A stretch of DNA of 64,000 bases from Escherichia coli (GTDB lineage Bacteria; Pseudomonadota; Gammaproteobacteria; Enterobacterales; Enterobacteriaceae): NCBI RefSeq assembly GCF_016026235.1, contig NZ_CP065613.1; one strand, given 5' to 3'. The notes beneath the pieces were generated by a model that was given only the letters and a program-made list of their open reading frames with translations, did not search any database and was not told the origin of the DNA. This document shows, in pieces, positions 1 through 17,235 of this stretch. Every line of letters begins with the position of its first letter. Position 1 is the stretch's first letter. A program made the translations under genes and the position numbers.

Positions 1-229
1 TGGTGTCATCCGCGCCCTGGTCAATCACCTTCAACACGTCGCTTTCGCCAATCACGCTGGCGGTAAGCTGAATACCGCCGGTTCCCCAGCCGTACGGCAT
101 CGGCATCTCACGCCCGCCAAACGGCACCTGATAACCGGGGATCGCCACCGCTTTTAAGATGGCGCGGCGGATCATGCGTTTGGTCTGCTCGTCGAGGTAG
201 GCAAAGTTGTAGCCGCTCAGATTAGCCAT
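1..229 (-). CDS. phnJ: C-P lyase subunit PhnJ, 5' portion only (gene continues past window start)
   Basis: Minus-strand ATG at 229..227; translation begins MANLSGYNFAYLDEQ, matching the PhnJ N-terminus; sits immediately downstream of phnI. Confidence 0.85.
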   Translation of the reverse strand, partial: MANLSGYNFAYLDEQTKRMIRRAILKAVAIPGYQVPFGGREMPMPYGWGTGGIQLTASVIGESDVLKVIDQGADDT

Positions 230-1286
230 GGTTCTGCTCCTGTTGCAGACGTTTGAGTAGCTCCAGTTCGGCCTGGAAATCGACGTAGTGCGGGAGTTTG
301 AGGTGCGAGACAAAGCCTGCGGCTTCGACGTTGTCGGCATGCGCCAGCACGAACTCTTCATCCTGCGCCGGGCCTGTCGCGTGCTCGCCGTACTCCGGAG
401 CCTGCAACGCACGATCGACCAGCGCCATCGCCATCGCTTTGCGCTCGCTCATGCCGAACACCAGCCCGTAGCCGCGCGTGAAGTGCGGCGGCTCACCCGG
501 CAGGTCGATAAAACCGTTGATCATTTCACACTCAGTCATCAGCAATTCGCCGACGTTCACCGCAAATCCCAGCTCTTTCGGCACAATCGACACGTCGATG
601 TAACCACTGCGGATTTCACCCGCGAACGGGTGGTTGCGCCCGTAACCGCGCTGGGTGGAGTAGGCCAGCGCCAGCAAATAGCCTTCGTCGCCGCGCATCA
701 ACTGCTGCAAACGGGAAGAACGTGAGCAGGGGTAAACCGGCGGCGTGCGGGTGATGTCATCCGGCTGTGCGCCGCTATCCTCTTCAAACTTCGCCAGCCC
801 CTGACGCGCCAGCAGGCTGAAAACGTGCGGCGACGGCTGTTGTTCGCTGTCGGCGGTGGTCAGTGTCGGCGCTTCGCCGTTTGCCAGCAGGGTGAAATCG
901 AGCAGGCGATGGGTGTAGTCGTAGGTTGGGCCAAGCAACTGGCCGCCGGGAATGTCTTTATAAACCGCCGAAATACGCCGTTCGAGACGCATCCCGGTGG
1001 TGTCGAGCGGCTCGCTTACCGCAAGCTTCGCCAGCGTGGTGCGGTAGGCGCGCAGCAGGAAAATTGCTTCGACGTTATCGCCGCTGGCCTGTTTTAGCGC
1101 CAGCGCCGCCAGTTCGCGGTCGGCAATGCCGCCTTCGGTCATCACGCGATCCACCGCAAGATTAAGCTGCTGTTCAATCTGGGCGACGCTCAGTTCGGGC
1201 AAATCGGTATCGCCCCGGCGTCGGCTCTCTTGCAGGGCGTGGGCGGCGTCGATCGCCTTCTCGCCCCCTTTCACGGCAACGTACAT
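222..1286 (-). CDS. phnI: C-P lyase subunit PhnI
   Basis: ORF 222..1406; internal start [16 protein letters not shown] gives ~354 aa; operon position between phnH and phnJ. Confidence 0.9.
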   Translation of the reverse strand: MYVAVKGGEKAIDAAHALQESRRRGDTDLPELSVAQIEQQLNLAVDRVMTEGGIADRELAALALKQASGDNVEAIFLLRAYRTTLAKLAVSEPLDTTGMRLERRISAVYKDIPGGQLLGPTYDYTHRLLDFTLLANGEAPTLTTADSEQQPSPHVFSLLARQGLAKFEEDSGAQPDDITRTPPVYPCSRSSRLQQLMRGDEGYLLALAYSTQRGYGRNHPFAGEIRSGYIDVSIVPKELGFAVNVGELLMTECEMINGFIDLPGEPPHFTRGYGLVFGMSERKAMAMALVDRALQAPEYGEHATGPAQDEEFVLAHADNVEAAGFVSHLKLPHYVDFQAELELLKRLQQEQNHG

Positions 1287-1870
1287 CAGCACACCTCCAC
1301 ATGAGTGGTTCGCGGAATAGCCAGCAGGCGCTCGCCGCAGGTCAGGATCAGGTCGATGCCGAGCGGGAACGGGTGCGGGCGCTCGGTGAGTTCGTGCAGA
1401 ATGCACTCCGGCAGCTGCGGGGCGATCATTCGTTCTTCGGCAATACCCGCGCCGGTGAGACGCAGCATGCGCCCGCCGCTCAGGCTGGCGACCTGTAAAA
1501 TCAGCGTTGCACCCGCTTCCGGCGCAACGGCGGTGCCGGTGGAAAGGGCGTTAAGCTGTTCGCTGGAAATCGCCTCATCCGTTACCGCGAAGGTCGCCTG
1601 TTCCGGCTGGCTGACCAGCGGCGCGTTGGTATGAAAACGCAGGCTCTGGCTGACTATATCGTTACTTAATGGGGCAGAAAGCCACACCGGCGTGTCGTTA
1701 TCGGCCAGCGTCAGCAGCACGCTGGTGGTGGCGATATTCAGCGGCTGCCAGCCGCGTTTAAGCTGATGCAGGGCGACAATCACGCCCGGCTCGCTCATGG
1801 CCTTTAACAGGCGACGAAAACTGTGCTGGGCATCCTGCACGGGAAGCATAAAAGCGGTTTCCAGGGTCAT
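1286..1870 (-). CDS. phnH: C-P lyase subunit PhnH
   Basis: 194 aa ORF, overlapping start/stop with neighbours in the phn operon. Confidence 0.9.
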
Positions 1871-2319
1871 GCGTTGTCTCCGCGAACCATCGTAAAGAAG
1901 TCGACCCGGCTGGCGTTCACTTCGGCCTGGCGTGCGGCAATGCGTGCCATACGGTCAGCGTCCAGCGGGGCAATAAGCGTTTCTGATAAGTTTTGAAAGT
2001 GGCGAGATTGCTGCATCAGCGCGTCAATCAGCGCGCAGCGTTCGGCGTGCTGTTTGTCGCGCCCCAGCACCCAGCTGTAGCCGAGCGTGCCGTCAGTCAG
2101 GCGTACGGCGGCGCGGGTGAGCGTGGCGTCGCCGGCAAAAAAGCGTTCGCCGGTGCCGCCCATTCGCGCCTGAATCTGCACCAGGCCGGTTTCGGCGGCG
2201 CGGATCACCTCATAGTCGGCGGTGATGTTCAGCGCGTTCAGGCGGGCTGCCAGTTCTGCCGGTTGGCTGTGTGCCAGTACGGACATCCAGTGCTGGCGGG
2301 TCGCGGTATCTGCGTGCAT
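1867..2319 (-). CDS. phnG: C-P lyase subunit PhnG
   Basis: 150 aa ORF in operon order. Confidence 0.9.
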
Positions 2320-3045
2320 TCAGTGCTCCATAGTGAATTCAATCATGTCGGCGCGCGTCAGGCTGACGGAGTACTCCGCCGGGCTGCTTTCACCGTCACG
2401 GTGGTTAAGGGTGCGCACGCACAGCAGCGGCGACATATTCGGGATTTCAAGACGCTGGCACTCTTTGGCCTGGGCGCGGCGGGCGCTGATCCGTGTCTGG
2501 CTGCGGCGCAGTGCAATCCCGGTTTGCTCGCGCAGAAAATCGTGCAGCGAGCCGCTGTCGAAGCGTTGCAGCGTCGGCCAGAGGGTGAGGTCCGCGAAGT
2601 AGTGGTCGATTAAACAGAGCGCGATGCCGTTGACCCGGCGCAGGGTGCGCAGGTGGATAACGTTCTCGCCCTCCTTGAACCCCAGCGCGTCAGCGACGTG
2701 ACCGGAGGCCGGGCGCAATACTGACAGCAGTTTTTCGCTGGTGGGATGGCTGCCCTGATCCAGCAGGTTCTGGCTAAAACGCGCCTGGGCGTTGAGCGGG
2801 TAATCGAACGGGCGCATCAGCACCAGTACGCCGACGCCCTGACGGCGCTGTACCCAGCCTTTTTCCACCAGTTGGTCGATGGCGCGGCGCAGGGTGTGGC
2901 GATTTACCTCAAAGCGCGCCGCCAGCTGCTGCTCGGCGGGAAGATAGTCGCCGCAGCGGTAGTGTTGACGAAGCTCCTGCTCAAGTTTTGCGGCTATCTC
3001 CTGATAGCGTGTCGGGTAGCTGGTCGGATGTGTAGACAAGTGCAT
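2320..3045 (-). CDS. phnF: GntR-family repressor of the phn operon
   Basis: 244 aa ORF; likely start MHLSTHPTSYPTRYQEI; HTH-GntR-like N-terminus. Confidence 0.88.
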   Translation of the reverse strand: MHLSTHPTSYPTRYQEIAAKLEQELRQHYRCGDYLPAEQQLAARFEVNRHTLRRAIDQLVEKGWVQRRQGVGVLVLMRPFDYPLNAQARFSQNLLDQGSHPTSEKLLSVLRPASGHVADALGFKEGENVIHLRTLRRVNGIALCLIDHYFADLTLWPTLQRFDSGSLHDFLREQTGIALRRSQTRISARRAQAKECQRLEIPNMSPLLCVRTLNHRDGESSPAEYSVSLTRADMIEFTMEH

Positions 3046-3065
3046 AGCTATCAATGCCTCGCTAA

Positions 3066-3845
3066 TCAGATAAAGTGCTTACGCAACCGTTGAGAGAGGA
3101 AATCCAGCAGGCTGACCGTGACGATAATCAGCACCATCAGGGCGCAGGTTTGCTGGAACTGGAAACCGCGAATCGCTTCCCACAGGGTGACGCCGATCCC
3201 GCCTGCACCGACCATGCCGACGACGGTCGCCGAGCGGACGTTGGATTCGAAGCGATAGAGGGAGTAGGAGATCAGCAGCGGCATCACCTGTGGCAGCACG
3301 CCGTAGAGGATCTCTTCCAGCTTGTTAGCACCGGTGGCGCGAATACCTTCCACCGGGCCGGGTTCGATCGCTTCCACCGCTTCAGAAAGCAGCTTGGAGA
3401 GCACGCCGGTGGTGTGGATAAACAGCGCCAGCACGCCAGCGAACGGGCCGAGGCCGACGGCGACCACGAACAGCATGGCGAAGACCATTTCGTTAATGGC
3501 GCGGCAGGCGTCCATCAGGCGGCGAACGGGCTGGTAAACCCACCACGGCACCAGGTTTTCGGCGCTCATCAGGCCGAAGGGGATGGAGAGAACCACCGCC
3601 AGCGCGGTGCCCCAGACGGCGATTTGCAGCGTGACGGCCATTTCGGTGAGGTAATCCTGCCACTGGCTGAAATCGGGCGGGAAGAAGTCGGCGGCGAATG
3701 TCGCCATGTTGCCGCCGTCTTTAATCAGCGTGAGCGGGGCCATTTCCGCGCCCTGCCACGAGACGACCAACACGGCGAGAACAACGGCCCAGCTCAGAAG
3801 CGAGAACCAGCTGCGCTTGGGTGGGGCGATGGTGATGGTTTGCAT
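3066..3845 (-). CDS. phnE: phosphonate ABC transporter permease, uninterrupted reading frame
   Basis: Continuous ORF 3066..3908; probable start [10 protein letters not shown]; hydrophobic membrane protein; no internal stop or frameshift. Confidence 0.85.
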
Positions 3846-3860
3846 GTTTGGCTCCGGTCT

Positions 3861-3947
3861 GTAGGCCGGATAAGGTGCTTGCACCGCATCCGGCATCAAC
3901 GCCTGCACATTGTCGGATGCGACGCCGGGGCGTCTTATCCGACCTAC
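3861..3947. repeat. REP/BIME palindromic repeats in phnE-phnD intergenic region
   Basis: gtaggccggataagg...gcatccggca and gtcggatgcgacgcc...cttatccgacctac motifs. Confidence 0.7.
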
Positions 3948-3950
3948 GAT

Positions 3951-4967
3951 TTACTGCACCGCTTTACTCACCGAACTCATCGCGCTTAACGCGTTGTTCA
4001 GGCGGTCCAGGTCATCCAGCTGCGCCTGAATCTCGGTGGTTTTTGCCAGCTTGTCCTGCTCATTCAGTCCTTTATTGCTTTTCACGCCCTGCATCTCTTT
4101 AAACAGCGCGAGCTGGCGAATCGGCACCAGTTGCAGGTCGCTGGAAGCGCGGAACGGCGCCCAGCCCAGGCGTTCCAGCACCGCTTTTTCTTCCGGCGTT
4201 TTGCCGTAGTTCATAAAGAAGTCGTAGATCTTGTCTTTGGTGGTTTCGGAAAGGTTTTTACGCCAGACGATCGGATCGCCTGGGATCAGCGGCGACTTCC
4301 AGATCACTTTCAGTTCTTTCAACTTCTCCGGCGCGGAGGTTTTCAGCTTGTCGAGGTTTTCGGTGTTGTTAGTGGCAACATCCACCTGCTTGTTGGCGAC
4401 GGCCAGCGCGTTGGTTTCATGCCCGGCGTTGACGGTGCGCTTAAAGTCGCTGGCGGAGATATTGTTTTTGGCGAAGACGTAGTAGCCGGGGACGAGGAAG
4501 CCGGAGGTAGAGTTAGGATCGCCATTGCCGAAGGTGAGATCTTTTCGCTTGGCCAGCAGATCGTTCAGGTTGTTGATCGGGCTATCTTTGTTGACGATCA
4601 ACACGCTCCAGTAACCCGGCGATCCATCCGCCGCGACGGTCTGGGCGAAGACCTGTCCATTGGCGCGATCCACCGCTTCCATCGCCGACAGGTTGCCGTA
4701 CCAGGCGATATCCACTTTGTTGAAGCGCATTCCCTGGATAATGCCCGCGTAGTCCGGGGCAAAGAAGGCGTTGACCTTCACGCCCAGCTTCTTCTCCATA
4801 TCCTGTAAAAACGGCGTCCATTGCGGTTTCAGGTTTTGCTGTGATTCCGTTGAAATAATGCCGAAATTCAGCGCCTTTTCCTGCTCTTCGGCGTGCGCCG
4901 GGCTAAACAGGGTGCTGAGGCTGAACATGCTGGTGAAGGCCAGCGAGGCAATTATCTTAGCGTTCAT
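3951..4967 (-). CDS. phnD: phosphonate ABC transporter periplasmic binding protein
   Basis: 338 aa ORF with signal peptide (MNAKIIASLAFTSMFSLSTLFSPAHA). Confidence 0.92.
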   Translation of the reverse strand: MNAKIIASLAFTSMFSLSTLFSPAHAEEQEKALNFGIISTESQQNLKPQWTPFLQDMEKKLGVKVNAFFAPDYAGIIQGMRFNKVDIAWYGNLSAMEAVDRANGQVFAQTVAADGSPGYWSVLIVNKDSPINNLNDLLAKRKDLTFGNGDPNSTSGFLVPGYYVFAKNNISASDFKRTVNAGHETNALAVANKQVDVATNNTENLDKLKTSAPEKLKELKVIWKSPLIPGDPIVWRKNLSETTKDKIYDFFMNYGKTPEEKAVLERLGWAPFRASSDLQLVPIRQLALFKEMQGVKSNKGLNEQDKLAKTTEIQAQLDDLDRLNNALSAMSSVSKAVQ

Positions 4968-4991
4968 TCGTTTTCCTCAATGATGGGGATG

Positions 4992-5780
4992 TCAGGCAGC
5001 TTTCGCGTTCTCTTCGACGCGGTTAATGCTGCGGTAGAGATGGTCAAAACGATCGTTATCAAACAATTGGCTGCTGCCGTCGTAGAAGACGTGCCCCTGA
5101 CGCAGGGCGACGATGCGCTCGCAGTAGCGCAGGGCGTAATCCACCTGATGCAGCGTGACGACCACGGTGATGCCGTCGTTCTGGTTGATGTCGCGCAGGG
5201 TGTCCATCACGATGCGCGCCGATTCTGGGTCCAGCGAGGCGATCGGTTCGTCGGCGAGAATCACCTTCGCCTGCTGCATCAGCGCGCGGGCAATCGCTAC
5301 ACGCTGCTGCTGGCCGCCGGAGAGGGTGGAAACGCGCTGATGGGCAAAATGCACCATGCCAACGCGGGTTAGCGCCTGTAATGCGCGCTGTTTCTGCTCG
5401 CGGGTGAAGTAGCTAAAACAGGTGCGCCAGAACGGCGTGCTGCCGAGCGCCCCAATCAGCACGTTCTCCAGTACGCTCAGGCGATTCACCAGGTTGAATT
5501 GTTGGAAGATGTAGCCGGTGTTGGCGCGGCTTTTGCGGATATCGCGGGCCAGGCGGCCTTCGCGCTGGACAGTGCGGCCCAGTAGCTCGATATGGCTACC
5601 GGCGGATTTATCGCCGGTAATCAAACCGCTTAAATGACGTAAAAGGGTGGATTTGCCGGAACCGGACGGCCCAAGCAGAGCCACCATTTCACCATGATGG
5701 ATATTCAGATCAACCGCGTGCAGCGCCTGATGCTGATTGAAGGTTTTGCTCAGTTGTTCGACGCGGATAATCGTTTGCAT
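4992..5780 (-). CDS. phnC: phosphonate ABC transporter ATP-binding protein
   Basis: 262 aa; Walker [10 protein letters not shown] and ABC signature LSGGQQQR. Confidence 0.93.
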
Positions 5781-5821
5781 GATGCAGCCTCCCTAAAAAA
5801 GTGGCTCCATCGTGGCGGATT

Positions 5822-5858
5822 ATTGTGACGGTTTGGTTAATGAAAAGTGACTAACAGA
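5822..5858 (-). promoter_or_regulatory. candidate Pho box (PhoB site) upstream of phnC
   Basis: Minus-strand reading CTGTTAGTCAC...CCGTCACAAT resembles direct-repeat Pho box ~40-80 bp upstream of phnC start. Confidence 0.5.
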
Positions 5859-5912
5859 TGAAGAGTTAACGGGAATTCGATGACAGTGCGGGAGGGCGGG
5901 CCTCCCGGCGGA

Positions 5913-6356
5913 TTATTGCGTTGGTTGTTGTTTGACGACATTAATCATCCACGGTACGCCAAATTTATCGGTGACTTTGCCAAAGCCATGCGCCCAGAAA
6001 GTTTCCTGCCAGGCCATTTCGATTTTTCCGTTAGCTGCAAGGTTATCAAACCAGCGTTTTCCTTCTTCGACCTGTTGCGAATCGAGCACCAGCGTAAAGC
6101 CGGAGTAGCTGGCTTTTCCTGACGGCATGGCATCGCTCATCATGATGTCGCTTCCGGCAATGCGCACGTTGGCATGAGCGATTGCGGTATCGGGAAATTG
6201 CATTCCGGAAGGGCAGTTCTCGGCGCTGTCCTGCGCTGATTTTGGCATTTCGCCGAAGCTGATTTTATAGAGCAGTTCAGCGCCCAACGTACGTTGATAA
6301 TAAGCAATTGCGTCGGCACAGTTACCGGCAAAAGAGAGGTAGGGACTTAACGGCAT
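5913..6356 (-). CDS. yjdN: PhnB/YjdN-like protein (glyoxalase-fold)
   Basis: 147 aa ORF; position between phnC and yjdM. Confidence 0.8.
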   Translation of the reverse strand: MPLSPYLSFAGNCADAIAYYQRTLGAELLYKISFGEMPKSAQDSAENCPSGMQFPDTAIAHANVRIAGSDIMMSDAMPSGKASYSGFTLVLDSQQVEEGKRWFDNLAANGKIEMAWQETFWAHGFGKVTDKFGVPWMINVVKQQPTQ

Positions 6357-6418
6357 GATGGTGACCTCAGTTAAGAGAAGCCAGTTAAGTGTAGTTCGAA
6401 ATTTGTACAGATGAGAGG

Positions 6419-6599
<181 letters not shown>

Positions 6600-6613
6600 C
6601 GATCACAATACAA

Positions 6614-6949
6614 TCAGTTCTTTTTCACGAACTCAGATTTCAGTTTCATCGGACCAAAACCGTCGATTTTGCAATCGATGTTATGGTCGCCTTCAACCAG
6701 GCGGATGTTTTTCACTTTGGTGCCAATTTTCAGCATCGAAGAGCTACCTTTCACCTTCAGATCTTTAATGATGGTAACGCTGTCGCCGTCAGCCAGCAGA
6801 TTGCCGTTAGCATCTTTAACGATCAGCTCATCGCTTTCCTGTGCAGGTTCTGCGTCGTTCCATTCGTAGGCACATTCCGGGCAGATGTACATGCCGTTAT
6901 CTTCGTAGGTGTATTCGGAGTTGCATTTTGGGCAGTGTGGTAATGACAT
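6614..6949 (-). CDS. yjdM: PhnA/YjdM zinc-ribbon protein
   Basis: Start [30 protein letters not shown] (two CxxC pairs); 111 aa. Confidence 0.88.
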
Positions 6950-7350
6950 GTGGATTTCCTCAAAAGTCAGCAGGGCAAAAGCGCCAAAAAACGGCAGATT
7001 GCCGAAAAAGGCCGCAATTATACACAAAATCCCTGAGTTTGTCGGGGGTACTGCTGATTTTAGACGACGATCGTTTTCATTTGAAAGGAAACGCAAAAAG
7101 AAAATAATCTTTTTGCCTCCATTTATTATTTAAGATAAGGTTAATGCTCTACTTGTTCTTTTTTTTATTCACATGATATTTTTATCTTTCTGACGTTTTA
7201 AACGTATCGGAAGATGTTATTTATTCTAATAAAAAACAACACTCTAAATATAAAATTATTTCTTGCAGTAATTATAAAAGCCGAAAACAGAACTCAAAAA
7301 CAATCTGGCTAAATAAAAGTAATAAAATTTGCTTTAAGGAAGAATTTTCT

Positions 7351-9579
7351 ATGTACACACAGACCCTGTATGAGTTAAGTCAGGAGGCTGAACGCCTGTT
7401 ACAGCTTTCTCGCCAACAGTTGCAGTTACTGGAAAAAATGCCTCTCTCTGTACCCAGAGACGATGCGCCACAACGGGCTTTACCCTGGAGTCAGCCTAAT
7501 ATCGCCGAACGTCACGCGATGCTGAATAATGAGTTGCGTAAAATTTCCCGACTGGAAATGGTGCTGGCGATTGTCGGTACCATGAAAGCAGGGAAATCAA
7601 CCACCATTAATGCCATTGTTGGTACGGAGGTACTGCCTAATCGCAATCGCCCAATGACTGCGCTGCCGACGCTTATTCGCCATACACCCGGGCAAAAAGA
7701 ACCGGTACTGCATTTTTCACATGTCGCGCCAATCGATTGTTTAATTCAAAAATTACAACAGCGCCTGCGTGATTGCGATATTAAGCATCTGACCGATGTG
7801 CTGGAAATAGATAAAGATATGCGTGCGCTTATGCAGCGGATCGAAAATGGCGTCGCTTTCGAAAAATATTATCTGGGTGCCCAGCCTATTTTTCATTGTC
7901 TGAAAAGTTTGAATGATTTAGTGCGACTGGCGAAGGCGCTGGACGTCGATTTTCCTTTTTCTGCTTACGCCGCCATTGAGCATATTCCCGTGATTGAAGT
8001 GGAGTTTGTCCATCTGGCGGGGCTGGAGAGTTATCCCGGTCAGTTGACGTTACTGGATACCCCCGGGCCAAATGAAGCCGGGCAACCGCATCTGCAAAAA
8101 ATGCTTAACCAGCAGCTGGCTCGCGCCTCGGCGGTACTGGCGGTGCTGGATTATACGCAACTGAAATCGATCTCCGATGAAGAGGTCCGTGAGGCGATTT
8201 TGGCGGTGGGGCAATCGGTGCCGCTGTATGTGCTGGTCAATAAGTTCGATCAACAGGATCGTAACAGTGACGACGCCGACCAGGTGCGGGCACTGATTTC
8301 CGGGACGCTGATGAAAGGCTGTATTACGCCACAGCAGATATTTCCGGTGTCGTCGATGTGGGGCTACCTGGCAAATCGGGCGCGCCATGAGTTAGCCAAC
8401 AACGGTAAGTTACCACCGCCAGAGCAACAACGCTGGGTGGAAGATTTTGCCCATGCCGCGCTCGGCAGGCGCTGGCGTCATGCCGATCTGGCGGACCTCG
8501 AACATATTCGTCATGCTGCCGATCAGTTGTGGGAAGATTCGCTGTTCGCCCAGCCAATTCAGATGTTGCTTCATGCCGCTTACGCTAACGCCTCGTTGTA
8601 TGCTCTGCGATCTGCCGCGCATAAACTGTTGAATTACGCGCAGCAGGCGCGGGAATACCTGGATTTTCGTGCGCACGGGTTAAACGTCGCTTGTGAACAA
8701 TTGCGGCAAAATATCCACCAGATCGAAGAAAGTTTGCAGCTATTGCAACTCAATCAGGCGCAGGTGAGCGGCGAGATTAAACATGAAATCGAGCTGGCCC
8801 TGACCTCCGCCAACCACTTTCTGCGTCAACAGCAAGATGCGCTGAAGGTGCAGTTAGCCGCCTTGTTTCAGGATGATTCGGAGCCGTTAAGCGAGATGCG
8901 TACCCACTGTGAGACACTGTTACAGACGGCGCAGAACACCATCAGTCGCGACTTTACGCTGCGTTTTGCCGAGCTGGAATCCACCCTTTGCCGAGTGTTA
9001 ACCGATGTTATTCGCCCCATTGAGCAACAAGTCAAAATGGAATTGAGCGAGTCAGGGTTTCGTCCTGGGTTTCATTTTCCTGTTTTTCACGGAGTAGTTC
9101 CCCACGTCAACACTCGCCAGCTGTTCAGTGAAGTCATTTCGCGCCAGGAGGCAACGGACGAGCAGAGCACGCGTTTAGGCGTTGTGCGTGAGACTTTTTC
9201 GCGCTGGTTGAATCAGCCCGACTGGGGATGGGGAAATGAGAAATCCCCGACAGAAACGGTTGATTACAGTGTGTTGCAACGAGCATTAAGCGCAGAAGTC
9301 GATCTTTATTGCCAACAAATGGCTAAAGTTCTGGCAGAGCAGGTCGATGAATCTGTTACGGCAGGCATGAATACTTTTTTCGCTGAGTTCGCTTCATGTT
9401 TGACGGAATTACAGACGCGTTTACGCGAAAGCCTGGCTCTGCGTCAACAAAATGAATCGGTGGTCAGGCTGATGCAGCAGCAATTGCAGCAGACTGTGAT
9501 GACTCACGGCTGGATTTACACCGACGCCCAGCTGTTACGCGATGATATTCAAACACTTTTCACGGCAGAACGATATTGA
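7351..9579 (+). CDS. crfC: dynamin-like GTPase (CrfC/YjdA)
   Basis: 742 aa ORF; P-loop GTMKAGKSTTINAIVG; long coiled-coil C-terminal half. Confidence 0.88.
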   Translation: MYTQTLYELSQEAERLLQLSRQQLQLLEKMPLSVPRDDAPQRALPWSQPNIAERHAMLNNELRKISRLEMVLAIVGTMKAGKSTTINAIVGTEVLPNRNRPMTALPTLIRHTPGQKEPVLHFSHVAPIDCLIQKLQQRLRDCDIKHLTDVLEIDKDMRALMQRIENGVAFEKYYLGAQPIFHCLKSLNDLVRLAKALDVDFPFSAYAAIEHIPVIEVEFVHLAGLESYPGQLTLLDTPGPNEAGQPHLQKMLNQQLARASAVLAVLDYTQLKSISDEEVREAILAVGQSVPLYVLVNKFDQQDRNSDDADQVRALISGTLMKGCITPQQIFPVSSMWGYLANRARHELANNGKLPPPEQQRWVEDFAHAALGRRWRHADLADLEHIRHAADQLWEDSLFAQPIQMLLHAAYANASLYALRSAAHKLLNYAQQAREYLDFRAHGLNVACEQLRQNIHQIEESLQLLQLNQAQVSGEIKHEIELALTSANHFLRQQQDALKVQLAALFQDDSEPLSEMRTHCETLLQTAQNTISRDFTLRFAELESTLCRVLTDVIRPIEQQVKMELSESGFRPGFHFPVFHGVVPHVNTRQLFSEVISRQEATDEQSTRLGVVRETFSRWLNQPDWGWGNEKSPTETVDYSVLQRALSAEVDLYCQQMAKVLAEQVDESVTAGMNTFFAEFASCLTELQTRLRESLALRQQNESVVRLMQQQLQQTVMTHGWIYTDAQLLRDDIQTLFTAERY

Positions 9580-10442
9580 CCAAGACGTTACTGGACGGCC
9601 CCGGTCGCGTGCTGGAGTCGGTTTATCCCCGCTTTTTAGTGGATCTGGCGCAGGGCGATGATGCCCGCCTTCCACAAGCCCATCAGCAGCAGTTTCGTGA
9701 ACGACTGATGCAGGAACTTCTTTCGCGTGTGCAGCTTCAGACATGGACGAACGGCGGCATGTTAAATGCGCCGCTTAGCCTGCGACTGACAATGGTGGAA
9801 AAACTGGCGTCGATGCTGGATCCCGGTCATCTGGCGCTGACGCAGATCGCGCAGCATCTGGCGCTGCTGCAAAAAATGGATCACCGCCAGCACTCTGCTT
9901 TCCCGGAGCTCCCCCAGCAAATTGCCGCCTTGTATGAGTGGTTTTCAGCCCGTTGTCGCTGGAAGGAAAAGGCGTTAACGCAACGAGGCCTACTGGTGCA
10001 GGCAGGTGATCAGAGCGAGCAAATTTTTACCCGCTGGCGTGCTGGGGCGTATAACGCCTGGTCGTTGCCTGGGCGCTGTTTTATCGTTCTCGAAGAGTTG
10101 CGCTGGGGTGCATTTGGCGATGCCTGCCGTCTGGGAAGCCCGCAAGCGGTGGTGTTGTTGCTGGGTGATTTGCGCGAGAAAGCGACACAACATCTGGCAG
10201 AGAGTATCAATGCGGCACCGACCACGCGTCACTATTACCATCAGTGGTTTGCCTCTTCGGGAGGGGAGCATGCTGATTTTTTAAGTTGGCTGGGAAAGTG
10301 GTCCATGGCAGATAAACAGCCCGTTTGCTGGTCAGTGACCCAACGCTGGCAAACAGTCGCGCTGGGGATGCCACGACTCTGTTCAGCGCAGCGTTTGGTG
10401 GGGGCAATGGTCGAGGAAATCTTCTCTGTAAATTTGGCGTAA
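9576..10442 (+). CDS. yjcZ: YjcZ, partner protein of CrfC
   Basis: 288 aa ORF overlapping crfC stop by 4 nt (translationally coupled). Confidence 0.8.
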   Translation: MTKTLLDGPGRVLESVYPRFLVDLAQGDDARLPQAHQQQFRERLMQELLSRVQLQTWTNGGMLNAPLSLRLTMVEKLASMLDPGHLALTQIAQHLALLQKMDHRQHSAFPELPQQIAALYEWFSARCRWKEKALTQRGLLVQAGDQSEQIFTRWRAGAYNAWSLPGRCFIVLEELRWGAFGDACRLGSPQAVVLLLGDLREKATQHLAESINAAPTTRHYYHQWFASSGGEHADFLSWLGKWSMADKQPVCWSVTQRWQTVALGMPRLCSAQRLVGAMVEEIFSVNLA

Positions 10443-10705
10443 ATAATCAGTTACATCAATGAGTCCTAAACGAAATCCATGTGTGAAGTTGATCACAAAT
10501 TTAAACACTGGTAGGGTAAAAAGGTCATTAACTGCCCAATTCAGGCGTCAACTGGTTTGATTGTACATTCCTTAACCGGAGGGTGTAAGCAAACCCGCTA
10601 CGCTTGTTACAGAGATTGCATCCTGCAATTCCCGCTCCCCTTTTGCGGCCGTCGCGCTGATTTTTCTGGCGTTTGCGGAAATGGGCCAACTCTGCGAGGA
10701 AAGCT

Positions 10706-12208
10706 ATGCTGAAAAGGAAAAAAGTAAAACCGATTACCCTTCGTGATGTCACCATTATTGATGACGGTAAACTGCGTAAAGCCATTACCGCAGCATCACT
10801 GGGTAATGCAATGGAATGGTTCGATTTTGGTGTTTATGGTTTTGTTGCTTACGCATTAGGTAAAGTTTTTTTCCCGGGGGCTGACCCCAGCGTGCAGATG
10901 GTTGCTGCACTTGCCACTTTCTCCGTTCCCTTTCTGATTCGACCGCTTGGCGGGCTCTTCTTTGGTATGTTGGGCGATAAATATGGTCGCCAGAAGATCC
11001 TCGCTATCACTATTGTGATTATGTCGATCAGTACGTTCTGTATTGGCTTAATACCGTCCTACGACACGATTGGTATTTGGGCACCGATTCTGCTGTTGAT
11101 CTGTAAGATGGCACAAGGTTTCTCGGTCGGCGGTGAATATACCGGGGCGTCGATATTTGTTGCGGAATACTCCCCTGACCGTAAACGTGGCTTTATGGGC
11201 AGCTGGCTGGACTTCGGTTCTATTGCCGGGTTTGTGCTGGGTGCGGGCGTGGTGGTGTTAATTTCGACCATTGTCGGCGAAGCGAACTTCCTCGACTGGG
11301 GCTGGCGTATTCCGTTCTTTATTGCTCTGCCGTTAGGGATTATCGGGCTTTACCTGCGCCATGCGCTGGAAGAAACTCCGGCGTTCCAGCAGCATGTTGA
11401 TAAACTGGAACAGGGCGACCGCGAAGGTTTGCAGGATGGCCCGAAAGTCTCGTTTAAAGAGATTGCCACTAAATACTGGCGCAGCCTGTTGACATGTATT
11501 GGTCTGGTAATTGCCACCAACGTGACTTACTACATGTTGCTGACCTATATGCCGAGTTATTTGTCGCATAACCTGCATTACTCCGAAGACCACGGGGTGC
11601 TGATTATTATCGCCATTATGATCGGTATGCTGTTTGTCCAGCCGGTGATGGGCTTGCTGAGTGACCGTTTTGGCCGTCGTCCGTTTGTGCTACTTGGTAG
11701 TGTTGCCCTGTTTGTGTTGGCGATCCCGGCGTTTATTCTGATTAACAGTAACGTCATCGGCCTGATTTTTGCCGGGTTACTGATGCTGGCGGTGATCCTT
11801 AACTGCTTTACGGGCGTTATGGCCTCTACCTTGCCAGCGATGTTCCCGACGCATATCCGTTACAGCGCGCTGGCGGCGGCATTTAATATTTCGGTGCTGG
11901 TTGCCGGTCTGACGCCAACACTGGCGGCCTGGCTGGTCGAAAGCTCGCAGAATCTGATGATGCCTGCCTATTACCTGATGGTAGTGGCGGTGATTGGTTT
12001 AATCACCGGCGTAACCATGAAAGAGACGGCAAATCGTCCGTTGAAAGGTGCGACACCGGCGGCGTCAGATATACAGGAAGCGAAGGAAATTCTCGTCGAG
12101 CATTACGATAATATCGAGCAGAAAATCGATGATATTGACCACGAGATTGCCGATTTGCAGGCGAAACGTACCCGCCTGGTGCAGCAACATCCGCGAATTG
12201 ATGAATAA
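10706..12208 (+). CDS. proP: proline/glycine-betaine osmosensing MFS transporter
   Basis: Start MLKRKKVKPITLRDV; 500 aa; 12 TM MFS with C-terminal coiled coil (IDDIDHEIADLQAKRTRL). Confidence 0.92.
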   Translation: MLKRKKVKPITLRDVTIIDDGKLRKAITAASLGNAMEWFDFGVYGFVAYALGKVFFPGADPSVQMVAALATFSVPFLIRPLGGLFFGMLGDKYGRQKILAITIVIMSISTFCIGLIPSYDTIGIWAPILLLICKMAQGFSVGGEYTGASIFVAEYSPDRKRGFMGSWLDFGSIAGFVLGAGVVVLISTIVGEANFLDWGWRIPFFIALPLGIIGLYLRHALEETPAFQQHVDKLEQGDREGLQDGPKVSFKEIATKYWRSLLTCIGLVIATNVTYYMLLTYMPSYLSHNLHYSEDHGVLIIIAIMIGMLFVQPVMGLLSDRFGRRPFVLLGSVALFVLAIPAFILINSNVIGLIFAGLLMLAVILNCFTGVMASTLPAMFPTHIRYSALAAAFNISVLVAGLTPTLAAWLVESSQNLMMPAYYLMVVAVIGLITGVTMKETANRPLKGATPAASDIQEAKEILVEHYDNIEQKIDDIDHEIADLQAKRTRLVQQHPRIDE

Positions 12209-12220
12209 GCTGAAACGGAT

Positions 12221-12250
12221 GGCCTGATGTGACGCTGTCTTATCAGGCCA
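12221..12250. repeat. REP element downstream of proP
   Basis: ggcctgatgtgacgctgtcttatcaggcc palindrome. Confidence 0.6.
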
Positions 12251-12319
12251 ATTGAACTCTTAAGGTTCACTTAATCTCTGCCGCGCATACTCTCCTCCAG
12301 ATTAACGGAGGAGAGTGCA

Positions 12320-12409
12320 ATGAAAAACCGTGTTTATGAAAGTTTAACTACCGTGTTCAGCGTGCTGGTGGTCAGCAGCTTTCTTTATATCTGGTTTGCC
12401 ACGTACTGA
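12320..12409 (+). CDS. pmrR: small membrane protein PmrR-like (29 aa)
   Basis: ATG 12320, MKNRVYESLTTVFSVLVVSSFLYIWFATY, stop 12407..12409; preceded by GGAGGAG SD; overlaps 3' end of basS on the opposite strand. Confidence 0.6.
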   Translation: MKNRVYESLTTVFSVLVVSSFLYIWFATY

Positions 12410-13485
12410 TCTTTCTTCAGCCGTATCCAGGCGCGCGTGCCAGAAGTCTCTTGCCGGTTTTGCAGGAAAAACTGCCCGTGATGCAACTGTGTAATGCGGC
12501 TGACAATACTTAACCCCAGACCAATCCCGCCATAACGGCTGTCCATACGTACAAACGCTTTACTCAACTCCCCGCATTTACTCTCATCAATACCCGGTCC
12601 TTCATCTTCAACGGCCATGACCGCTCCGCTATCTTCTTGCAGCTTAATCATAATGTTGCTGCCTTGCGGGCTGTAACGATGGGCGTTTTCTACTAGGTTT
12701 CGCAATAACATCCGCAGCAGGGTTGCATCACCCTGAACGGTGATGTCGGCGGCGCTCTCTGGCAATAGCAGGGTTTGCTGTCGCTGGTCGAGCATGGTAC
12801 TGAGTTCGTCATACGAGGGGAGAATGACATCTTCCAGCAGTTTTACATGTTGATAATTACCGGAAGAAAATGACTGTCCGGCACGCGCCAGTTGCAGCAG
12901 CTGGGAGACGCTCTCCATCATCTGATCAAGCCGTGCCACTAACGGTGCTACATCAATGTGATGCGTTTTCGCCAGCAGTTCCAGATGCAAACGTACCCCC
13001 GCCAGTGGCGTTCGCAGTTCGTGCGCGACGTCAGCGGTAAATAACCTTTCGTTATCCAGCGTGCTGGTCAGGCGACTGACCAGATCGTTCAACGCCGAAA
13101 CCACCGCTTCGATTTCGAGGGTGGCGCTGTGAATGGCAATGGGCGTTAAGTTGTCGGCGGTGCGCGCTTCCAGCTCTTTTTGCAGCTCCGCCAGCGGGCG
13201 GGTGATGCGGCGTACCGCCTGATAGCAGATAAATAGCGTCAGGCTGACCATAAAGACGCCGGGGACAATCAGGCTGGCGACCGCCTCGCGGATCTCACGC
13301 ATGATGTGGCGATCGTTGTTGCGATTGTCGCGTAGCGCCTGCTCAAACAGCTGAATCTGCTCGGTACTTTCATGCCATAGCCAGAAGACGCTGATCAGCT
13401 CAAACACCAACAAAATGGCCCCGATGGTCAATATCAGCCGTTGGCGCAGCGATATTGGTCGGCGCAGAAAACGCATCAGATTCAA
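12385..13485 (-). CDS. basS: sensor histidine kinase BasS/PmrB
   Basis: 366 aa ORF; H-box ADVAHELRTPLAG; HATPase motifs; start overlaps basR stop. Confidence 0.9.
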   Translation of the reverse strand: MNLMRFLRRPISLRQRLILTIGAILLVFELISVFWLWHESTEQIQLFEQALRDNRNNDRHIMREIREAVASLIVPGVFMVSLTLFICYQAVRRITRPLAELQKELEARTADNLTPIAIHSATLEIEAVVSALNDLVSRLTSTLDNERLFTADVAHELRTPLAGVRLHLELLAKTHHIDVAPLVARLDQMMESVSQLLQLARAGQSFSSGNYQHVKLLEDVILPSYDELSTMLDQRQQTLLLPESAADITVQGDATLLRMLLRNLVENAHRYSPQGSNIMIKLQEDSGAVMAVEDEGPGIDESKCGELSKAFVRMDSRYGGIGLGLSIVSRITQLHHGQFFLQNRQETSGTRAWIRLKKDQYVANQI

Positions 13486-14154
13486 TTAGTTTTCCTCATT
13501 CGCGACAAGCATATAGCCAAAGCCGCGCACGGTGCGGATACGGGCTTTGCCCACTTTGTCGCGCAGATTGTGGATATGCACTTCCAGGGTGTTGGTCGAG
13601 GGTTCATTGTCCCAGTTATAGATGTCGTTGTAGAGAATTTCCCGATGCACCGGACTGCCTGCTTTGAGCATTAACCGTGACAGCAGAGCATATTCTTTGG
13701 GCGTCAGAATCAACTCTTCACCGCCCATCCATACCTGACGGCGCCCCATGTTCAGCGTCAGATTGCCAACAATCAGCTCACTTTCGCCCTGATTATTATG
13801 GCGTCGTAGCAGGGCGCGGATACGGGCATGTAACTCTTCCAGCGCAAAAGGCTTCACCAGATAGTCGTCGGCACCGACATCCAGCCCGGCGATTTTGTCG
13901 GTCAGCGTATCGCGAGCGGTGAGGATCAGTACCGGCAGGGTATATTTTTTCTGCCGGATACGGGCGAGAAAATGCAGTCCATCTTCGTCGGGTAACCCTA
14001 AATCCAGTACCACCAGGCTGTAATGACCGGCCTCAAGGCTTTGTTCCGCCATCCGCGCGGTTGTCACGCCATCGCACGCGTAGCCTTCGGTTTGCACCGC
14101 CAGAATCAATCCCTGCAATAACAGCGTATCGTCTTCAACAATCAGAATTTTCAT
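13486..14154 (-). CDS. basR: response regulator BasR/PmrA
   Basis: 222 aa; MKILIVEDD receiver domain plus OmpR-type wHTH. Confidence 0.93.
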
Positions 14155-15794
14155 TCACTCACTCTCCTGCAAGTTTGCAGAATATCATCCGCAGCCTGGT
14201 AATACTTCGTCTCAACGCCAGTTAATCCCAATAGCGTGGAGAATAAATTGTCTTGTGAATAGTGTTGCGTTTGCGCCTGTTTTTGCAGGCAGTTCTGGTC
14301 AACCTGATACCGTTTTTGATAATCCTCCGACAGCCACAGCAGCATCGGCACCTGTTTTTGGCTATCTGGGGCGATGGCATAAGGCAGACCGTGCAGATAG
14401 ATGCCATTTTCACCTAACGATTCACCGTGGTCAGAAAGATAAACCAGGCTGGTGGTAAATTTATCCTGATGTTCTTTCAGCAGATTAATCGCTTTATCAA
14501 CAATATAGTCGACGTAAACCAGCGTGTTGTCGTAAGTGTTCACCAGTTGCTCTTTGGTACAGGTCTGGATCTCATTGGTGTCGCAGGTTGGGGTAAATTT
14601 CCTGAACTGCGGCGGATAGCGGTTGTAATAGGTCGGACCGTGGCTGCCGATGGTGTGTAAGACAATCACGCCATCACCCTGCAGGTTATTGATGTACTCT
14701 TCCAGCCCGTGGAACAGCACTTCGTCATAGCATTCGCCGTTGATGCACTGACCAGGCAGATTCAGCGCGGTGACGTTCTGGTGAGGCACGCGGTCGCAGG
14801 CACCTTTACAGCCACCATCGTTGTCATTCCACAGCACGTTGATGCCCGCTCGCTGAATGATATCCAGCACGCCTTCCTGGTGCTGTGCCAGCTCTTCTTT
14901 GTAATGCTCACGCGGCATATCCGAGAACATGCACGGTACTGAAACTGCCGTTGCCGTGCCGCAAGATGCGGTATTAGGGAAATAGACCACGTTATCTTTC
15001 GCCAGCCGCGGGTTAGTTTCACGCGGGTAGCCGTTGAGGGAGAAGTTCTCCGCCCGCGAGGTTTCGCCGACAATCAGGATGGTCAAATTTTTACGTTTTT
15101 CGTTCTGCATTAATGGGTTGCGGTGCGCGTCTTCACCAATTCGCACCAGCGGCAGATTTGCCAGTCGCTGATGGGAGTACCATGACCAGCTGGCAACAAT
15201 GCTGTTAGAGGGGCTTAAGGACTTCACCAGCTCTTTGTTGTTGCGGAACAACGAGGCGTAGTCTTTATAAAACAGTGCGGCGACCAGCAAAATCAGCAGT
15301 ACAGAAACCAGAATATTGGCTCCACGGAAAAGAACACTGCGCAGACGCGAGGTGGCAGGTTTGATTTTAATCCAGCAGGCAATCAGCGCAGCAAGCACGC
15401 CGCTGAATCCCAGCGTTAATAACATTTGCGGTGTCATCAGCGCATAGCTTTCTGCCGGAGTGGTATCAATAATATTGGCAATCATCGAGCGGTCGATGAC
15501 GATGCCGTAAGTCATTATGAAATATTGTGCAGCCGCGCCAACCAGAATAAACAGGCAGGCCAGCGGTCGATTAAGCCATAAGAAAGAGCTTAGTGTCAGG
15601 ACAATATTAATCACGCTGAAGGCGACGACCGGCATCGACAAGAAAACCAGTACGTTATGCAGCGAGTCCAGCGGCAGCGCCTGCAACACCTGTTTAAAAA
15701 AGGCAATATTCAGGCAGATAGAGATATAAAAAGCGGCCAACAATAGCCAGGCGAGTAAATTCAAAGAGGGTCTTTTTAGTAGGCGCTTCAACAT
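14151..15794 (-). CDS. eptA: lipid A phosphoethanolamine transferase EptA/PmrC
   Basis: Start [14 protein letters not shown]; 547 aa; sulfatase-like domain; 4-nt overlap with basR (pmrCAB operon). Confidence 0.9.
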
Positions 15795-15844
15795 CACGGT
15801 GTTTCCATCGAACAAAGTGCGCATATGCTCGCAAAGCAAAATTA

Positions 15845-15878
15845 AGCCAACCTTAAGTTCTTAAGGTTGGCTTTTATC
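15845..15878 (-). terminator. intrinsic terminator downstream of adiC
   Basis: Perfect hairpin gccaaccttaag/cttaaggttggc followed by T-run. Confidence 0.6.
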
Positions 15879-15897: not shown

Positions 15898-17235
15898 TTA
15901 ATCTTTGCTTATTGGTGCATCTAAGGGATACGGGTTTTTATGCAGCCGGTTGTAATTCAGCGCATACATGGCGGTGATGACCATCAGGGTGACAAATGAC
16001 CACATAACCTCTTTCGCCCCGGACCCCACCACGGCCCAGATGCAGTAGAGGAAGGCAATGGTAGTAACTGCCAGATATGCCGGGCGTGCTTTACCAAAGT
16101 GACCGTGTCCGAGCAGCAGTAACGCCGCACAGGTGTAAAGATATGGCACCAGTGTAAAGATGACCGAGACGGAAGAAACCAGACCGAATTCTTTGGTCGC
16201 GTTTGGTGAAATGCTGCTGAGCTGGAAGATGGTCATCAAAATACCGACGATAATCAGCCCCGCCACTGGCGTACCCGCTTTATTTACACGGGCAAAAATC
16301 GGTGGGAACAGTCCGTCATCGGCAGCGGCTTTCGCCGTTTGACCCGCCAGCAATGTCCAGCCGCCCAGTGAACCTAAGCAACCCGCAGCTGCGCAGAAGG
16401 AAACAATGGCCCCGGCGGTGTCACCCAACGCCATCCGTGCGGCATCACCGAATGGCGAGGCAGAAACGCGCAGTGCGGCATTAGGGATCATCCCCATAAT
16501 CGCGGTGGTGGAGAGCACATAGCAAACGGCGGCAATCAATACCCCACCGATGGTGGCGATAGGGACATTGCGTTTCGGGTTTTTCACCACACCTGCGGCA
16601 ACGGAGGCACTTTCCACACCGATGAACGACCACAGCGTAACGTTAAGGGTACTTTGAATTGCACCGAAGGTGCCCAGGCCGCTGACGTTCCATGCCGCCA
16701 TATAGGTTTCACCACGGAACCAGAACCAGCCAAATACGGCAATCCCGACGATGGGGATCAGCGCCAGCACGGTGGCAACGGCCTGCACACGGGTGATCAT
16801 TTTCGGACCGACAATGTTCAGCAGGACGAAGATCCACAGCACCACGACGCAGGTGATGGTTAATACCAATGGATCTTTCAGAATCGGGAAGAAGTAACTT
16901 AAATATCCTACGCCAATGACCACCATGGCGATATTGCCGATCCAGCAGGCCAGCCAGTAGAGGACGTTGGTTTGATAACCGAGAAACGGGCCAAAGCAGC
17001 GGCGGGCGTAAGCGTAAGAACCACCAGGACTTGGATCGAGGAACGACATTTTGGCGTATACCATCGAGAGCCCCAGCGCACCGATAATCGTCACCAACCA
17101 TCCATAAATGGCAATCCCGCCAGTGGAGGCCAGGTTTGCAGGTAACAGAAAAACACCTGACCCCATAATATTCCCCGACACCATCAGGGTGACGGGGATT
17201 AAGCCCACTTTGTGAGCATCAGCATCCGAAGACAT
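15898..17235 (-). CDS. adiC: arginine:agmatine antiporter
   Basis: 445 aa APC-family transporter; starts [19 protein letters not shown]. Confidence 0.92.

Follow-up and report, generated by a model that had tools for sequence, protein, structure and literature searches.

The small proteins MgrB and MgtS share the general design of PmrR: they too are shorter than 50 amino acids, possess a single transmembrane (TM) segment, are induced by a two-component system and bind a larger inner-membrane protein (PMC11429745). However, they have no sequence relationship to PmrR, and their targets differ, being PhoQ for MgrB, and MgtA and PitA for MgtS. In E. coli, pmrR lies on the strand opposite the eptA-pmrAB operon, with its 3' end overlapping pmrB and a PmrA box in its promoter (PMC8129183), and its 90-bp open reading frame (ORF) and the 25-bp overlap with pmrB have both been described (PMC8004244). 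According to the published model, the sensor PmrB (BasS) would respond to Fe3+ or mild acid, or become activated via PhoPQ and PmrD in low Mg2+; phosphorylated PmrA would then bind a CTTAAG-N5-CTTAAT box (12259..12275 in our coordinates) and bring about transcription of pmrR. In this model the peptide inserts into the inner membrane and blocks LpxT, the enzyme that adds the second phosphate to position 1 of lipid A. This block would free position 1 for EptA-dependent phosphoethanolamine, and the expected result is a less negatively charged surface, higher polymyxin resistance and lower deoxycholate resistance. Direct binding of PmrR to LpxT is cited in one report (PMC4651636).

The PmrA dependence of pmrR, its translation, the membrane association of the peptide and its genetic dependence on lpxT are known from published E. 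coli experiments. Removal of just the PmrA box of pmrR abolishes PmrR function: a PmrA-constitutive strain so altered became sensitive to polymyxin B and resistant to deoxycholate, regained its polymyxin resistance when lpxT was deleted as well, and was complemented by ectopic pmrR (PMC8129183). A second study found that the Ribo-RET start-site signal of PmrR rises 5-fold in low Mg2+, that PmrR-6xHis is present in the membrane fraction, that deletion of pmrR causes a growth defect complemented only with an intact ATG, that a transcriptional reporter of pmrR does not respond to low Mg2+, and that plasmid-expressed PmrR is harmful without stress (PMC11429745). The low-Mg2+ growth phenotypes of both pmrR deletion and overexpression remained in the absence of lpxT (PMC11429745), and therefore LpxT may not be the sole partner of PmrR.

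The ORF analysed here agrees with PmrR of Salmonella enterica and E. coli in length, sequence, PmrA-box promoter and convergent site at the 3' end of pmrB. For E. coli, lpxT-independent phenotypes have been noted (PMC11429745), and a plasmid result is at odds with the feedback model for Salmonella (PMC8004244). The ORF belongs to the NF033224 family and has the E. coli K-12-type sequence; at the gene level we see no difference from the described system.

A known system of another kind is the fold-back inhibition of the IS10 transposase gene. There the ribosome-binding site pairs with sequence upstream of the gene's own transcription start, and only transcripts that enter from outside form the inhibitory stem.

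Identity of the open reading frame

The window, a 64-kb stretch of Escherichia coli DNA, contains a small ORF at 12320-12409 (Table 1). The preliminary description had proposed a 29-codon frame at these coordinates, a strong Shine-Dalgarno (SD) sequence GGAGGAG and a convergent overlap of about 25 nt with the basS stop region; all of these were exact, the ORF to the base. RefSeq gives the same boundaries for pmrR and for pmrB (low end 12385) in a genome that is 100% identical over 12150-12600. The same description spoke of a single-TM peptide resembling PmrR, which understates the case, since the RefSeq annotation and the NCBIfam equivalog NF033224 (PmrR) identify the peptide as PmrR itself. 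The match to this model scored 74.2 bits (E = 5.2e-21; curated cutoff 30 bits), with residues 1-29 aligned to positions 1-29 of its 29. The best 19-residue window of the peptide, LTTVFSVLVVSSFLYIWFA, has a Kyte-Doolittle hydropathy of 1.94. A 451-bp segment around the ORF was matched in 5,412 of 5,426 complete E. coli genomes, at 95-99% identity over the query in most of them, and every genome among the matches listed carries the annotation "pmrR: LpxT activity modulator PmrR" between proP and pmrB.

Table 1. Features around pmrR and end points of published pmrB constructs, in window coordinates.
Feature	Position	Strand	Description
proP	10673..12208	+	ORF list; upstream neighbour, co-oriented with pmrR
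REP-like imperfect hairpin TGGCCTGATGTGAC / GTCTTATCAGGCCA	12220..12250	.	Between proP stop (12208) and PmrA box
PmrA (BasR) box CTTAAGGTTCACTTAAT	12259..12275	+	CTTAAG-N5-CTTAAT; perfect YTTAAK-N5-YTTAAK, 44 nt before pmrR ATG
Putative -10 hexamer CATACT	12286..12291	+	10 nt after PmrA box
Inverted repeat ACTCTCCTCC (12289..12298) / GGAGGAGAGT (12307..12316)	12289..12316	.	Perfect 10 bp, 8-nt loop
SD sequence GGAGGAG	12308..12314	+	5-nt gap to pmrR ATG
pmrR coding sequence	12320..12409	+	ATG start, 29 codons, 29 aa (MKNRVYESLTTVFSVLVVSSFLYIWFATY), single hydrophobic segment
Weak terminator-like hairpin TGCTGGTGGTCAGCA with U-rich tail GCTTTCTTTA	12363..12377	+	Inside pmrR coding sequence
Overlap of the 3' ends of pmrR (+) and basS/pmrB (-)	12385..12409	both	25 nt, both stop codons counted
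basS/pmrB	12385..13485	-	Sensor kinase gene, last gene of eptA-basR-basS
basR/pmrA	13486..14154	-	ORF list
eptA	14151..15839	-	ORF list
adiC	15898..17235	-	ORF list
+86 construct	ends 12299		Cuts stem, without -10; not colistin resistant (PMC8004244)
+103 construct	ends 12282		Stem and -10 regained, no PmrA box; colistin MIC 4 ug/mL (PMC8004244)
+126 construct	ends 12259		Whole PmrA box added; colistin MIC 16 ug/mL (PMC8004244)

The ORF is thus almost certainly pmrR, the PmrA (BasR)-activated gene of a 29-residue inner-membrane peptide that inhibits LpxT. An alternative explanation is that an open frame has arisen by chance between proP and basS and expresses no peptide. Its length of just 29 codons would be compatible with this, as would the fact that Pfam has no family for the peptide and returned a sub-threshold match only. 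However, the equivalog match, the purifying selection described below, and the fact that many genera keep the length, start codon, SD and PmrA box all speak against a chance frame, as do the published translation, membrane localisation and ATG-dependent complementation (PMC11429745). This alternative has practically no likelihood left and must be regarded as already refuted. Gene identity, PmrA box, SD, membrane-type composition, purifying selection and the position beside pmrB are what our sequence analysis contributes. The gene is already known, annotated and functionally characterised in E. coli, and finding it adds nothing new; the tests of PmrA dependence and of a tagged peptide suggested in the preliminary description have likewise been published for E. 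coli, with positive outcome.

On the opposite strand, eptA and basR share 4 nt (14151..14154), and basR and basS abut with a gap of 0 (13485/13486). Such close spacing is common in co-translated operons. The start of basS in the ORF list is an upstream TTG.

Distribution and conservation

We examined the DNA following the pmrB stop codon in 80 loci anchored on PmrB, with one genome per species. Anchoring on PmrB avoids a bias towards loci that possess pmrR; the 80 include no Salmonella locus. With the start codons of pmrR re-anchored relative to the PmrA box, 57 of the 80 loci possess a PmrR-like ORF of 28-33 aa that is convergent with pmrB, among them loci in Escherichia, Citrobacter, Klebsiella, Raoultella, Kluyvera, Kosakonia and Phytobacter, and also in Pseudocitrobacter, Trabulsiella, Yokenella, Pluralibacter and several genomes labelled Enterobacter. 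No such ORF followed pmrB in seven Enterobacteriaceae loci of the sample (L011, L014, L018, L033, L036, L046 and L048), in five of which uvrB visibly converges directly on pmrB, nor in any locus from Pectobacterium, Rahnella, Rouxiella, Ewingella or Chimaeribacter.

The peptides are uniform in design. They are 29-30 aa long in 55 of the 57 loci, and a hydrophobic 19-mer occurs in all 57, the lowest hydropathy being 1.73. They end in W-x-x-[TS]-[YF]: among 54 distinct peptides, 50 have W at -5; position -2 is T or S, and position -1 is Y or F. The pN/pS ratios of 0.22, 0.18, 0.15 and 0.27 in four clades reveal purifying selection. A PmrA box with 0-1 mismatch is found in all 57 loci and ends 40-46 nt before the start codon, most commonly 42. 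Escherichia and Citrobacter have proP upstream of pmrR, and most of the other genera have uvrB, co-oriented with pmrR in both cases; where uvrB takes the place of proP, the chromosomal surroundings of the pmrCAB-pmrR block are therefore different.

When eight peptides chosen to represent genera other than Escherichia and Citrobacter were compared with NF033224, seven scored below the cutoff or were unmatched. Genes of this kind are therefore probably left unannotated by the NCBI pipeline in clinically important species. The Klebsiella-type peptide is MQKINFREYLAVATALVIIVAFFHQWVLTF. Positional orthologues in loci L009-L063 (e.g., L024, Klebsiella pneumoniae) retain the PmrA box and the SD stem, and their peptides are still close to 30 aa in length and finish with W-x-x-[TS]-[YF].

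Promoter of pmrR

The preliminary description had advised looking for a PmrA box upstream of the ORF, and a perfect one, CTTAAGGTTCACTTAAT, is indeed present. Only two perfect matches to YTTAAK-N5-YTTAAK occur in the 64-kb window, where 0.12 are expected, and the second, CTTAAGGTTGGCTTAAT at 15857..15841 on the - strand, belongs to the eptA promoter. The hexamer GAGCAT is found in the eptA promoter at the same 10-nt spacing from the box that separates the box of pmrR from CATACT, and both hexamers have A at position 2 and T at position 6. At pmrR, the pattern nAnACT is nearly invariant in the 55 aligned sequences (A30 in 51/55, A32 in 54/55, C33 in 50/55 and T34 in 55/55). If CATACT acts as the -10 element, transcription would be predicted to start near 12298, 7 nt after the hexamer. 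We found neither a mapped pmrR start nor published distances from PmrA boxes to transcription starts in the searchable literature. A scan with the sigma-70 consensus returned no promoter at pmrR, as expected because the promoter is activator dependent and has no -35 element.

The PmrA box of eptA also forms the 3' arm of a hairpin on the - strand (15844..15873, 13-bp stem, followed by AATTTTGCTT). This hairpin lies about 25 nt past the stop codon of adiC, whose coordinates end at 15898; the probable terminator of adiC and the activator site of the eptA-basRS promoter therefore share the same DNA.

A conserved stem at the Shine-Dalgarno sequence

The SD of pmrR is located within the right arm of a perfect inverted repeat, whose left arm extends from within the putative -10 hexamer up to the predicted transcription start. 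In an alignment of 55 sequences from the PmrA box to the start codon (alignment A1), the SD core GAGG is conserved, and the arms of the stem differ between genera yet stay complementary (e.g., GGAGGAGAGT, TGAGGATAGTGT, CAGGAGAGT and GGAGGGCAGT). We assessed covariation over the 11 pairs of the stem in this alignment, using as controls the partner column slid by 1-3 positions and 500 shuffles. Cells of the stem were paired in 86.3% of cases, as against 37-52% in the slid controls; 50 cells had changed on both sides, against 5-15; and the covariation score was 0.273, against 0.125 or less. None of the 500 shuffles reached the observed value for any of the three measures, although these counts overstate independence in that the sequences are related; at least three different pairs switch in different clades. 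One pair alternates between CG (19), AU (17), GC (6) and GU (6). An independent RNAalifold run also recovered the core of the stem.

This conservation raises the possibility that the stem acts as a translational insulator, so that only RNA initiated at the PmrA-dependent promoter is translated while read-through RNA from the constitutively expressed proP or uvrB stays silent, and a peptide harmful when mis-expressed remains under the strict control of PmrA. We put this forward as a tentative reading, a little less likely than not. Given a start some 7 nt past the -10 hexamer, the PmrA-driven mRNA would not contain the left arm, and would have a 5' UTR of about 22 nt and a free SD. The read-through RNA would contain both arms and its SD would be sequestered. 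In partition-function calculations the mean probability that the SD is unpaired was 0.38 for RNA from the predicted start and 0.14 for read-through RNA, and the SD was less accessible in the read-through RNA at 49 of 54 loci. For pmrR of the window the corresponding values were 0.25 and 0.10, the SD being partly paired even in the short RNA. The modelled difference has the expected direction and is moderate in size. The existence of read-through RNA is supported by the co-orientation of the upstream gene with pmrR, whether it is proP or uvrB, and by SEnd-seq data in which the upstream transcript extends into the pmrR coding sequence (PMC10687069). An insulator would also fit the harm caused by plasmid-expressed PmrR in unstressed cells.

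Our searches of the available literature turned up no account of this stem, and the conserved SD hairpin is the one detail of pmrR that is possibly new. If the hairpin works as proposed, it would resemble the fold-back inhibition of IS10 in design only: pmrR is a chromosomal regulator and not a transposase, and its transcription start is a prediction. An RNA thermometer is an unlikely role for a perfect, G+C-rich helix of 10 bp, given that the 53-nt segments from Escherichia that include it fold at about -20 kcal/mol.

The stem forms in folds of both strands, including that of the pmrB 3' UTR. It could thus instead act on the - strand, where it would terminate the eptA-basRS mRNA or stabilise its 3' end, and have no part in sequestering the SD. 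We consider this improbable. The stem folds equally well on the - strand, and the outermost pair shows a bias in this direction, with A.C on the + strand, equivalent to G.U on the - strand, in 18 sequences. However, in the core pairs G.U outnumbers A.C on the + strand by 34 to 8, so that the same sequences would have many A.C mismatches on the - strand; this excess therefore favours an RNA acting on the + strand. In addition, the - strand has no U-tract after the stem, and the arms invariably consist of the SD on one side and a segment bordering the -10 on the other, as would be expected of an element that controls pmrR.

The pmrB constructs of Xu et al. (2021; PMC8004244) bear on the same question. 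Their primers confirm our mapping of the constructs, +176 corresponding to 12209 and +126 to 12259, where the PmrA box begins. The +86 construct, which loses one arm of the stem, gave low pmrB mRNA and no resistance, and the +103 construct, which regains the stem, gave partial resistance, in line with a 3'-end hairpin of pmrB; however, the half-life of the pmrB mRNA did not differ for the +86 and +126 constructs (PMC8004244). The colistin MICs follow the stepwise recovery of the pmrR promoter elements (Table 1), a connection not made by the authors (PMC8004244). The requirement for 103-126 bp downstream of pmrB in colistin resistance (Xu et al. 2021) may have its explanation in these elements, since the end points restore first the stem and the -10 and then the PmrA box. 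The constructs may exert their effect by way of PmrR, of the stem on the pmrB mRNA, or of the two together.

Within pmrR itself, the hairpin at 12363..12377 was the sole terminator-like site in a scan of both strands over 12150..12650. Its position is consistent with SEnd-seq data in which the transcript of the upstream gene ends inside the pmrR coding sequence (PMC10687069). An RNA ending at this site would be without the pmrR stop codon (12407..12409). We rejected the idea of a conserved attenuation design, as the site is present in just 8 of the 57 loci.

Overlap with basS

The tail-to-tail adjacency of pmrR and pmrB is conserved; the length of their overlap is not. The coding overlap ranges from -8 to +57 nt across loci, with one outlier of 139 nt. 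It measures 25 nt in Escherichia, 4-7 nt in most Citrobacter, 4 or 22 nt in Klebsiella and Raoultella, 0 or less in most Kluyvera and in Phytobacter, and up to 57 nt in Pseudocitrobacter. The outlier is Citrobacter koseri NCTC10786 (L008), in which the pmrB frame extends 139 nt into and past pmrR, suggesting a changed stop codon or a C-terminal extension. Because the length varies over this range, we regard the overlap of 25 nt in the window as incidental, a by-product of packing a tiny gene tail-to-tail with pmrB, and reject the notion that it is functional as a conserved feature.

The preliminary description also raised the possibility that transcription and termination of pmrR interfere with the 3' end of the pmrCAB mRNA. 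In its general form this would make pmrR-basS an excludon or antisense device, in which pmrR transcription enters basS and shapes or lowers the eptA-basRS mRNA, or the reverse, by polymerase collision or by RNase III cleavage of the duplex. The two genes are convergent, and the pair appears on a published list of convergent excludons drawn from E. coli RNA-seq coverage, in which overlap of the transcripts is reported (PMC12288877). The coding sequences overlap by 25 nt, our scan showed no terminator-like site between the two stop codons for either transcript, the convergent placement is kept in 57 loci, and plasmids that differ in how much DNA follows pmrB differ about 315-fold in pmrB mRNA (PMC8004244). 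Nevertheless, we think such a device unlikely. With overlaps of -8 to +57 nt, no particular duplex is under selection. Both promoters have perfect PmrA boxes and are driven by the same activator, the opposite of the mutually exclusive expression that characterises excludons. After deletion of the pmrR PmrA box, arnT was still induced about 50-fold, albeit in a PmrA-constitutive strain, which the authors read as intact function of eptA-pmrAB (PMC8129183), and adding the pmrR promoter region raised, rather than lowered, pmrB mRNA (PMC8004244).

Implications

As a gene, pmrR of the window is a rediscovery of an annotated gene with a published role in resistance to polymyxin and bile salts. Its promoter architecture recurs at PmrR-like genes of Klebsiella, Raoultella, Kluyvera, Kosakonia, Phytobacter and others. 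The conserved stem that can sequester the SD suggests that translation of a small protein is tied to the gene's own promoter, and such promoter-tied translation may extend to other small-protein genes that are squeezed between larger genes.
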